From Clostridia bacterium (lineage in GTDB: Bacteria; Bacillota; Clostridia; Christensenellales; Borkfalkiaceae): a stretch of 38,451 nt of DNA. Each line of letters starts with the position of its first letter. Within the stretch, counting starts at the first letter, position 1. A model generated the notes under the pieces. That model was not told where the DNA came from. It did no database searches and was given only the letters and a program-made list of their open reading frames with translations. Made by a program: the position numbers and the translations under genes. Positions 30,974-31,181 of the stretch are shown here, piece after piece. The stretch is from positions 1-38,451 of the forward strand of contig JAJPXK010000128.1 of assembly GCA_021205485.1 (NCBI GenBank), given 5' to 3'.

Positions 30974-31181
30974 GTCATCCTGAGGAGCATTAGCGACGTG
31001 AGGATCTCGCGAGCACTCGCGGAAAGCCAAGTTATTCGATTAGGGCTCAATTCTTAATAATAATGTAATCCTTATTATTTAAGAAACCAACATATTATTT
31101 TTAAACACCGTGCTGCCGTCCAGTCGTGCTGGTCGCGGGTTCCCGCGAGATTGCCACGGGGTAGAACCCCCTCGCAATGAC
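30974..31181 (+). mobile_element. MITE-like composite element, copy B
   Basis: The left arm is gtcatcctgaggagcattagcgacgtgaggatctcgcgagcactcgcggaaagccaag. The AT-rich core is ...ccttattatttaagaaaccaacatattatttttaaacacc.... The right arm is ctggtcgcgggttcccgcgagattgccacggggtagaaccccctcgcaatgac. It is colinear with copy A and with the reverse complement of copy C. Confidence 0.75.

Follow-up and report, generated by a model that had tools for sequence, protein, structure and literature searches.

What kind of element recurs at three places between the genes of one clostridial contig, and what has kept it there? The stretch in question, which we call the window, is the 38,451-nt contig JAJPXK010000128.1 of a Clostridia bacterium (assembly GCA_021205485.1); coordinates given without a further label refer to it. 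A preliminary description, made from the letters of the sequence, had placed three copies of a repeat of about 200 bp at 11414-11605, 30974-31181 and 34095-34297, the last of them inverted, and had likened it to a miniature transposable element with inverted repeats (MITE). We call these full copies A, B and C, and a truncated further copy D. Our answer, held with modest confidence, is that they belong to a non-autonomous repeat family resembling MITEs, bacterial interspersed mosaic elements (BIMEs) and the paired inverted repetitive extragenic palindromes (REPs) known as REPINs, and that this family has persisted for long, is partly constrained and is likely mobilized by an enzyme of the HUH/Y1 class.

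A family of composite hairpin repeats

The three copies lie where they had been reported. The terminal motif GTCATYSYGAG or its reverse complement is found exactly at 11414, 11605, 30974, 31181, 34095 and 34297, and the window holds 12 sites of this motif where 0.04 are expected. The sequence GCGGAAAGCCAAG has four exact matches, in A, B, C and the truncated copy at 11664, and seven matches when up to two mismatches are allowed (1.1 expected); GATTGCCRCGSGGTAGA has three exact matches. A, B and C are collinear over ~230 nt, AT-rich core included, with a mean column identity of 77% in a MAFFT alignment. A hidden Markov model (HMM) trained solely on copies from another genome recovers A, B and C with E = 4.7e-40, 4.1e-36 and 4e-28, and the same HMM has no match in the reversed window. 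These are therefore true copies of one element, core as well as arms, as the preliminary description had held.

Further copies came from a scan of one genome per species, across 185,579 species, with the pattern GCGGAAAGCCAAG-N(90-120)-GATTGCC. The scan yielded 69 stretches, among which nhmmer identified nine real copies on eight contigs, all from the metagenome-assembled genome ‘Clostridia bacterium isolate U.9_5’ (GCA_021199295.1; hereafter U.9_5); the other 60 stretches were chance matches, as expected for 20 fixed bases. An exact pattern misses diverged copies, so this count is a lower bound. Synteny added two more copies, for a U.9_5 total of at least 11, and a left-half unit is present in a third genome, GCA_965309985.1 (at 5093-5207 of L198; we cite stretches of other genomes by such L numbers). 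The scan for more copies that the preliminary description had proposed thus found them, and the family is so far known from these three related genomes only. The U.9_5 copies are 76-90% identical to one another and 70-77% identical to A, and one stretch (L013) carries a tandem pair of copies that are 99% identical.

Searches elsewhere were negative. Relatives at 88% IlvD identity (L073-75, ~52 kb) contain neither the element nor any GTCATYSYGAG unit. Two scans of IMG/VR gave chance matches only, blastn against plasmids and phages gave no match, literature matches to the terminal sequences were limited to unrelated primers, and a protein search with an 85-codon open reading frame (ORF) crossing a U.9_5 copy found no match. 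The 19-mer GRGATTGCCACGGGGTAGA had a single match in JGI metagenomes, in a tRNA-like region, which we rejected as chance. An exact look-up of IlvN returned one 2.3-kb Logan contig that also carries C, and an exact look-up of the tautomerase encoded downstream of B returned no record. By its IlvD homologues, the window belongs among uncultured Clostridia near Candidatus Coproplasma, with 83-85% identity to proteins so named. As part of the overall reading, and with the same reserve, we take the family to belong to a small clade of uncultured relatives of Candidatus Coproplasma among the gut Clostridia.

We determined the anatomy of the element from an alignment of 12 copies, three from the window and nine from U.9_5. 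The outermost left module is a REP-like arm of type X (GTCATCCTGAG..hairpin..GACGTGAGGATCT) or type Y (GTCATTGCGAG..hairpin..CGTGGCAATCT). Next come a hairpin that we call hp1 (CGCGAG..CTCGCG, extended in some copies by an inner GCAAAT/ATTTGC stem), the invariant sequence GAAAGCCAAG, and a left core of 45-70 nt that is alike among the U.9_5 copies and unalignable among A, B and C. The right half, of ~83 nt, comprises (A)AACGTATTATTTTTAAACAACTAATCTGCCGTCCTGCCTGCTGGT, a second hairpin, hp2 (CGCGNGTYCNCGCG), GGATTGCC and a Y-type hairpin (ACGGGGTAGAGCCCC); its consensus order is TATTATTTTTAAA..CTGCTGGT, hp2, GGATTGCC and the REP-like hairpin. The last module is CTCGCAATGAC with ~20 nt (..TTCTGCCGYTT) mirroring what lies left of the first GTCAT. 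Both hp1 and hp2 have the stem CGCGNG..CNCGCG, and after each comes G-N3/4-GCCA, on the same strand. The whole element measures ~200-270 bp, the spacer between its REP-like arms is 110-130 nt long, asymmetric and partly conserved, and repeated DNA reaches ~20-45 nt past the GTCAT/ATGAC ends.

The arms are inverted copies of one kind of unit and are interchangeable between copies. B and most U.9_5 copies have a left arm of type X and a right arm of type Y, and both types are also found elsewhere as solo REP-like units. Compared between copies, the arms are complementary over 48-49 nt at 82-90%; within C, they are complementary over 26 nt at 81%. A further hairpin module, Z (TGCACCTTATTATCTGAAAC..AATAAGGTGTGCA; in its full form TGCACCTTATTATCTGAAAC..(T)ACAATAAGGTGTGCA, then AGAGTGTCGCT..GCTCGCACGC), is nested in the right arm of five U.9_5 copies and in the left arm of two. 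Z stands solo in the window at 29329-29376 (+) and 37097-37144 (-), two units with a mutual complementarity of 88% and 81-86% identity to the Z of U.9_5, and more Z copies lie in L010 (3810-3850), L016, L013, L054, L022, L032, L007, L199 (9520-9565) and L201 (7050-7120). We considered a target duplication at nested Z, and rejected it: a different terminal unit accounts for the junctions (..CCCC|ATCT..ACG|CTCGCACGC..) better than a simple insertion does. With one HMM for each half, we found 14 right-half modules and 22 left-half matches, at least eight of the latter being left halves that stand alone.

It is the interior, then, that is conserved across the 12 copies, the outer arms being swapped or broken up by Z. 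The order in which X, Y, Z, hp1 with GAAAGCCAAG and the right-half motif recur is fixed. What recurs is thus an ordered mosaic of hairpin units and no indivisible single sequence. This modifies two points of the preliminary description. The arms are inverted, as described, but are no fixed sequence, since the two types are swapped, Z is nested in some of them, and the left half occurs by itself. The collinear core sets the copies apart from chance clusters of REP-like units, but the element is itself a BIME-like ordered mosaic of such units.

The modules that have been conserved are the two short inner hairpins and the 83-nt right half, rather than a long arm-to-arm hairpin. Over the 16 pairs of hp1 and hp2, 99.4% of cells are paired; none of 500 shuffles matches the pairing or the covariation score, and in slid controls pairing drops to 20-56%. 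One hp2 pair is AU in five copies, CG in five and GC in two, and in hp2 a double compensatory change separates B from its same-spacer counterpart in U.9_5. Compensatory changes in hp1 run from GC to CG and from AU to CG, and the arm hairpin of C has changed from GGGG/CCCC to GCGG/CCGC. RNAalifold, run on eight right halves, predicts solely hp2 and the arm hairpin, with no pairing in the conserved AT-rich and CTGCC..CTGCTGGT stretch. Whole copies do fold into long hairpins (z-scores of -2.5 to -6.1 against shuffles), as the preliminary description had anticipated, but arms of different type are combined in one copy, so arm-to-arm pairing is not what evolution keeps. Since the hairpins are palindromic and fold on either strand, they are compatible with RNA and single-stranded DNA alike. 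One G-U pair is present in hp1 of A, and the arms show a recurrent T-G opposition on the element's own strand.

Copy A (11414..11625, + strand) has its proper end at 11605, followed by a 20-nt terminal extension. Its left arm is Y-type (GTCATTGCGAG..GGCAATCT), hp1 spans 11441-11463 and GAAAGCCAAG 11464-11473, and after a short left core the conserved right half occupies 11513-11594, with hp2 at 11558-11571 and a Y-type right arm up to 11605. A lies in the spacer between oppA (11693-14473, -) and oppB (10125-11159, -), antisense to both. The truncated copy D (11626..11677, +), which consists of an X-type arm (GTCATTCTGAGCGAAGTCGAAGAATCT), an hp1-type hairpin (CGCGGGTACCCGCG) and GAAAGCCAAGC, adjoins A and ends 15 nt from the oppA stop codon. 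Copy B (30943..31209, +), on whose span 30974-31181 the preliminary description had centered, has an X-type left arm at 30974-31007 (GTCATCCTGAG..GAGGATCT), hp1 at 31008-31021, GAAAGCCAAG at 31022-31031 and a variable AT-rich left core at 31032-31088. Its conserved right half lies at 31089-31170, with hp2 at 31134-31147, its Y-type right arm at 31148-31181, and extensions at both ends (ACCTTATT/AATAAGGT). B is in sense orientation between tilS, which ends at 30927, and the tautomerase gene (31239-31589). Copy C with the DNA inserted along with it spans 34075..34342 on the - strand, the element proper being 34095-34297. In + coordinates, its right half is at 34107-34188, hp2 at 34129-34142, CTTGGCTTTC at 34241-34250 and hp1 at 34251-34264; its left arm is Y-type, as in A (GTCATTGCGAG..GGCAATCT). 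C lies antisense in the spacer between ilvN (33528-34067) and ilvD (34376-36052).

Partial and solo units complete the set. Upstream of tilS, a left-type unit (29296..29430, +) joins an X arm (GTCATCCTGAG..GAAGGAT), a Z hairpin (TGCACCTTATTATCTGAAAC..GGTGTGCA), an hp1-like hairpin and GCAGAAAACGACC. A cluster after the DUF4097 gene (37040..37195, unstranded) contains GTCATCCTG units, the inverted Z hairpin at 37097-37144, and an X arm with an hp1-like hairpin at 37159-37190. Solo REP-like units of the same arm types are found at 5136..5216 (unstranded); one of them, GTCATTGCGAGCGTAGCGTGGCAATGAC at 5188-5215, matches the left arm of A without a difference over its first 25 nt.

No ORF is conserved in the element: the longest ORFs within copies run to 20-85 codons, and copies do not share them, in agreement with the non-coding character first proposed for it. 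Nor is its orientation to neighboring genes fixed, as had also been noted. Five copies are sense (B and those in L010, L065, L022 and L032) and six antisense (A, C, those in L007 and L054, and the L013 pair), a mixture that argues against a strand-specific cis-acting RNA role.

Persistence of copies and the conserved right half

Homologues of OppB and IlvD led us to a U.9_5 contig, JAJQII010000067.1, that is collinear with the entire window in BLAST comparisons. The preliminary description had proposed looking for insertion polymorphism and empty sites, and the spacer between ilvN and ilvD provides both. In the window, where it includes C, it is 308 bp long; the U.9_5 spacer has no repeat and is 44 bp long, and that of L073-75, which also lack C, is 71 bp long. 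In L072, the spacer contains 315 bp of unrelated repeats. The amino-acid identity to the window is 94% for U.9_5, 91% for L072 and 88% for L073. Given these identities and the absence of C from the relatives' spacers, C is most simply read as an insertion in the window's lineage, after its split from the nearest sampled relative. Comparison with the empty site indicates a gain of ~268 bp (34075-34342), as against 203 bp for the element.

The spacers of A and B, by contrast to that of C, are occupied in both genomes. Between oppA and oppB of U.9_5, a right half lies at L199 9567-9649 in the same antisense orientation as A, and the two copies have the same GTCATTGCG.. start and the same GGGTCTCTACCCC variant. 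The U.9_5 copy has a nested Z, its core is cut off by another repeat, E2 (described below), and a separate forward left-half unit follows. After the oppA stop codon of U.9_5 there is also a possible decayed remnant of D, although the alignment is weak. Between tilS and the tautomerase gene, U.9_5 has a copy at L201 6804-6960, in the orientation of B, in which hp1 and GAAAGCCAAG are missing and after which comes an extra left-half unit. A is very probably, and B probably, orthologous between the window species and U.9_5, and the extra units in the U.9_5 spacers show that the addition of units beside existing ones continued.

Within the window, A, B and C have an overall identity of 64-65%, and still have in common hp1 with GAAAGCCAAG, the right half and the arm hairpins. 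From this low identity, and from the fact that A is nearer to the U.9_5 copies, we conclude that the window copies are old members of different sub-lineages.

How much conservation should be expected at such a distance? Six flanking genes compared between the window and U.9_5 have amino-acid identities of 70-96% and an identity of 52% (523/999) at four-fold degenerate sites. The right halves of same-spacer copies are 86% identical (89/104 for B, 81/94 for A; binomial P ~1e-12), and cross comparisons of right halves between the window and U.9_5 give 82-90%. The left cores of same-spacer copies are unalignable, as is the remaining spacer DNA. With the left core decaying and the right half staying near the consensus, the right half appears to be under constraint. 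Either selection acts on each copy to keep it near the consensus, or a conserved source refreshes the copies by conversion. A caveat remains, mainly for B: the two lineages may have acquired their copies independently, by insertion into hot-spot spacers. The long persistence of A and B with a conserved right half is not simple selfish decay.

A bolder interpretation, which we offer tentatively, is that the 83-nt right half (AAACGTATTATTTTTAAACAACTAATCTGCCGTCCTGCCTGCTGGT, hp2, GGATTGCC, hairpin) is a module maintained locus by locus under purifying selection across species, and no decaying transposon end. Such a module may reflect a long-term partnership of the REPIN-RAYT kind (RAYT, REP-associated tyrosine transposase) in Clostridia, with an unusually large and asymmetric unit, or may be a site of a new kind, in DNA or in a single-strand hairpin, that works in either orientation and serves the host between genes.

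Mobilization and competing explanations

How might such an element move? We picture a composite non-coding hairpin repeat in which two inverted REP-like arms, of at least two interchangeable types, enclose hp1, hp2 and an asymmetric AT-rich core. Since the element encodes nothing, its enzyme would act in trans, placing copies in spacers just downstream of stop codons. The hairpins would be the feature that is recognized or selected: their structure is kept by compensatory changes while the sequence drifts, which suggests recognition as folded single-stranded DNA (or RNA). We infer that the likeliest mobilizer is an HUH/Y1 enzyme of RAYT or IS200/IS605 type from the conservation of structure rather than sequence, the lack of a visible target duplication, the arrangement of hp1 and hp2 with G-N3/4-GCCA, and the REPIN-like persistence. 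After insertion, copies would persist for long, the left core decaying and the right half staying near the family consensus, either as an end required for mobilization or as a part used by the host.

In organization, the closest known systems are REPINs and the BIMEs of Escherichia coli, especially BIME-1 or RIP, in which two inverted REPs surround an IHF-binding motif. Like the present element, BIMEs are extragenic, ordered mosaics of GC-rich REP-like hairpins in alternating orientation with conserved motifs between them; an AT-rich conserved center is flanked by inverted units that also occur solo and recombined; and they lie after stop codons in operons, including between binding-protein and permease genes. 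They differ in that the center is 110-130 nt here rather than ~30 nt, and in that the host here is a member of the Clostridia. IHF is not expected in this lineage. The arm units (GTCATTGCGAG.. and GTCATCCTGAG..) also differ from what we take to be the E. coli REP consensus.

REPINs consist of REPs paired in inverted orientation, are mobilized by single-copy RAYTs and are long inherited vertically (PMC3116915, 10.1101/2022.05.22.493013), and Group 1 RAYTs are present in Clostridia (PMC5581495). The likeness to the REPINs and RAYTs of Pseudomonas and enterobacteria (PMC3116915, PMC3337134) lies in paired, inverted, REP-like hairpins as the unit, in the non-coding sequence with its hairpin kept, in solo units resembling remnants, and in long, apparently vertical persistence across species: A and B are in the same U.9_5 spacers despite the 52% four-fold identity. 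The spacer here, however, is much longer, asymmetric and conserved, the two arms may differ in type, and no RAYT gene was found in the sequence examined. Elements associated with IS200/IS605 palindromes offer a further parallel, since hp1 and hp2, with the same stem and G-N3/4-GCCA, resemble the end hairpins read by TnpA, and no target duplication was seen; such elements, unlike ours, are without long terminal inverted repeats, and they insert beside a fixed tetra- or pentanucleotide. Neither tnpA nor tnpB was found in the window or the related loci examined.

Other families share fewer features. BOX of Streptococcus pneumoniae (PMC3049150) is likewise a modular non-coding hairpin repeat of Bacillota with variable module combinations and no known transposase, but has other modules and another sequence, with tandem boxB (boxA-boxB-boxC) where this element has a core between inverted arms. 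Correia elements (NEMIS/CREE) of Neisseria and ERIC of enterobacteria are ~100-200 bp long, have terminal inverted repeats around a core, form long hairpins and lie in transcribed spacers in both orientations; they have a TA target duplication and uniform ends, whereas the present element has mosaic ends and showed no duplication. Outward promoters can arise at Correia ends, and by consensus match the right end of B might do so too: at 31177..31205 (+), ATGACA (from ..GCAATGACA) is followed by a 17-nt spacer and TATAAT (11/12 matches), ending 34 nt upstream of the tautomerase ATG. Similar ATGACA-N16/17-TAT(A/T)(A/T)(A/T) sequences are found at the right ends of the copies in L065, L007 and L010, and the -10 of B's site is absent from the same-spacer U.9_5 copy. 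We treat this promoter-like site as an occasional by-product, as in Correia elements. The core was also compared by eye with the dif/Xer, CodY-box and IHF consensus sequences; the matches were partial and these candidates were dropped.

Several observations weigh against a REPIN-like element moved by an HUH/Y1 enzyme. No Y1/HUH or other transposase was found in ~190 kb of the window and related genomes, screened by an HUH..Y regular expression over ORFs of at least 80 codons (the window, and eight U.9_5 loci amounting to ~46 kb) and by the Pfam labels of genes in L072-75 and L198-202. No clear direct repeat marks a target-site duplication at C, in the one comparison of filled and empty sites, between diverged species: C is flanked by ..TAATAAC[insert]TTGCC.., U.9_5 has ..TAATTAAGGC.., and divergence blurs the junction to the base. 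No fixed target sequence emerged, there being no shared tetranucleotide left of the copies and the C junction being ambiguous. The conserved 110-130-nt arm spacer is far longer than in described REPINs, and the arms are terminal inverted repeats, whereas Y1-mobilized derivatives of IS200/IS605 are usually without them. The opposite orientations of B and C, at a distance of 3 kb, do not fit a strict strand bias. Finally, the orthology of B is likely but unproven, as the surrounding units differ, and independent insertion at a hot spot would weaken the argument for constraint.

Of the competing explanations, a host cis-acting element fares best, although we consider it unlikely. The right half, perhaps with hp1-GAAAGCCAAG, would here be a functional host site, selection would keep the copies, and their spread would be incidental; the site could bind a nucleoid or other DNA-binding protein, or could act as a hairpin block shaping mRNA decay or termination inside operons, like enterobacterial REPs and BIMEs. 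The excess of right-half identity between species (82-90%) over neutral sites (52%) and the double compensatory change in hp2 between same-spacer copies fit this idea, as does the position of copies directly after stop codons in the co-directional pairs oppA-oppB, ilvN-ilvD, tilS-tautomerase and nadA-DUF3793 (L022). Action in either orientation would suit a DNA-level site, and IHF sites are known from BIMEs and Correia elements (PMC3184786). Yet close relatives have an ilvN-ilvD spacer without C and show no sign of needing it, the neighboring genes are unrelated to one another, and the copies have neither an intrinsic-terminator shape, with no T-run after the hairpins, nor a conserved promoter. 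Moreover, the needs of mobilization together with gene conversion could also give the conservation seen.

Somewhat less probable still is a classic MITE, an internally deleted derivative of an insertion sequence (IS) that a DDE transposase would mobilize as double-stranded DNA via its terminal inverted repeats, leaving short target duplications, with the hairpins as a by-product. The definition of MITEs in PMC3184786 is matched by inverted ends around a core, a size of ~200-270 bp, the absence of an ORF, dispersed copies and one insertion polymorphism, and the 48-49-nt arms, 82-90% complementary between copies, and the long whole-copy hairpins (z of -2.5 to -6.1) point the same way. Against it, no target duplication is visible at C, long-range complementarity is not maintained where X-left and Y-right arms are combined (B and most U.9_5 copies), covariation is located in the short local hp1 and hp2, and left halves have spread alone. 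No IS with such ends was found in the window or at any related locus examined. The MITE-like, mobile or selfish origin first favored for the element is thus partly supported, by the insertion polymorphism of C, but no target duplication, parent IS or transposase was found, and A and B are old copies with conserved right halves.

We regard a multi-copy small RNA gene, in which every copy would be its own transcription unit making a structured RNA, as very improbable. Compensatory hairpin changes, folding energies below those of shuffles, the G-U pair in hp1 of A and the T-G opposition of the arms would suit an RNA. However, cmscan with Rfam 15 gives no match over any copy at E <= 1, and consensus scans find no promoter or terminator at a fixed place, the core promoter-like matches being weak and differing among copies. 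The structure common to all copies amounts to two or three short hairpins with the AT-rich and CTGCC..CTGCTGGT stretch unpaired, the palindromic hairpins fold alike on both strands, and the same-spacer U.9_5 counterparts of A and B have lost the left half or carry it rearranged. The structured-RNA alternative raised in the preliminary description is accordingly unsupported. Least credible of all is locally duplicated, non-mobile regulatory DNA, which would account for A, B and C all lying within 23 kb but not for at least nine more copies on eight other contigs of a second genome, both orientations, unrelated neighboring genes and the lack of C from the same spacer in relatives; the scenario under which the preliminary description had placed it, with no additional copies, no polymorphism and no covariation, is contradicted by the U.9_5 copies, by C and by hp1 and hp2.

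Surrounding region and significance

The window and its relatives contain other repeats. One hairpin family, CCTTCCCCTCAAGGGGAAGGCAAG and variants, is found at ~5087-5118, 11232-11290, 11367-11410 and 37528-37560, in L065 at ~4850-4880 and in L072 at ~2460-2485. It adjoins other repeat units and gene ends, and is thus also present in the more distant L072, whose examined DNA is without the focal element. Repeat E2, of ~170-200 bp and with 73-83% identity between copies, occurs at L199 9641-9860, L010 1717-1882, and L072 2245-2391 and 5477-5521. E2 is common to U.9_5 and GCA_965309985.1 and absent from the window; it fills the L072 ilvN-ilvD spacer where the window has C.

Repeat units may affect annotation and assembly. 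The longest-ORF starts of ilvD (TTG 34238), the tautomerase gene (GTG 31110) and tilS (GTG 29362) enter repeat units, over 34238-34375, 31110-31238 and 29362-29490; such starts would give spurious N-terminal extensions (MLGFPPVLARLPRRFAPRNDRG..), and gene callers may be misled by them. In L065, at 4795-4900, a short ORF (MFCKNCGENY..) enters a repeat cluster, and a similar gene (MYCKNCGSLID..) lies just after it, from 5287 onward; they may represent a zinc-ribbon gene with a 5' part that repeat insertion duplicated or cut off. Several stretches are bounded by repeats: in L013 a copy starts at base 19, in L016 at base 5, in L054 one lies ~110 nt from the end, and the L198 contig begins 113 nt upstream of oppB. 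Short-read assemblies of the clade's metagenome-assembled genomes thus seem to break at the repeats.

Other non-coding features lie between the genes. A 103-nt island at 28904-29006 is 87% identical to U.9_5 (L201 4873-4975) in a spacer that is otherwise unalignable. It is AT-rich, contains TATATAATATTGCG twice, and lies between the gene for a 1463-aa surface protein (start 28789, -) and the divergent tilS; it is probably a conserved promoter or operator region. At 31794-31829, after the tautomerase gene and just upstream of the likely ilvB start (MKLTGAEIL, ~31856), is a palindrome with a 16-bp stem (GCAAATCTTTTTGCA-loop-TGCAAAAAGATTTGC) and a T-run after it on the - strand, which may terminate transcription in both directions or attenuate the ilv operon. 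No tRNA or tmRNA gene was found. The sole Rfam match of the window, to the c-di-GMP-I-GGC riboswitch and at 4481-4542 (21.7 bits against a gathering threshold of 59, E = 0.72), lies inside a serine dehydratase-like ORF (3791-5056), and is almost certainly chance.

Among the coding sequences, three genes for very large secreted or surface proteins stand in a row, at 16205-24295 (-), 24398-28789 (-) and 14470-16212 (-). The 2696-aa one among them has a subtilase domain, many leucine-rich-repeat units (DNA repeats with a period of 66-69 nt) and a C-terminal membrane anchor. The three genes are syntenic in U.9_5 and, with a DNA identity of 67-70%, are the region's most diverged.

What we describe is a new family of the known REP/BIME/MITE kind, with no evident relation in sequence to BIMEs, REPINs, MITEs or BOX elements, and its unusual trait is a strongly conserved, asymmetric 83-nt half across species. 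The biology of REPs, BIMEs and REPINs is based almost wholly on Proteobacteria. Here, a similarly organized mosaic hairpin repeat is found in uncultured gut Clostridia, with two syntenic genomes that separate old from new copies. If the right-half conservation holds in more genomes, the family would provide a case from Bacillota for the debate over whether such repeats are parasites, partners or tools of their hosts, and a defined 83-nt sequence for tests.

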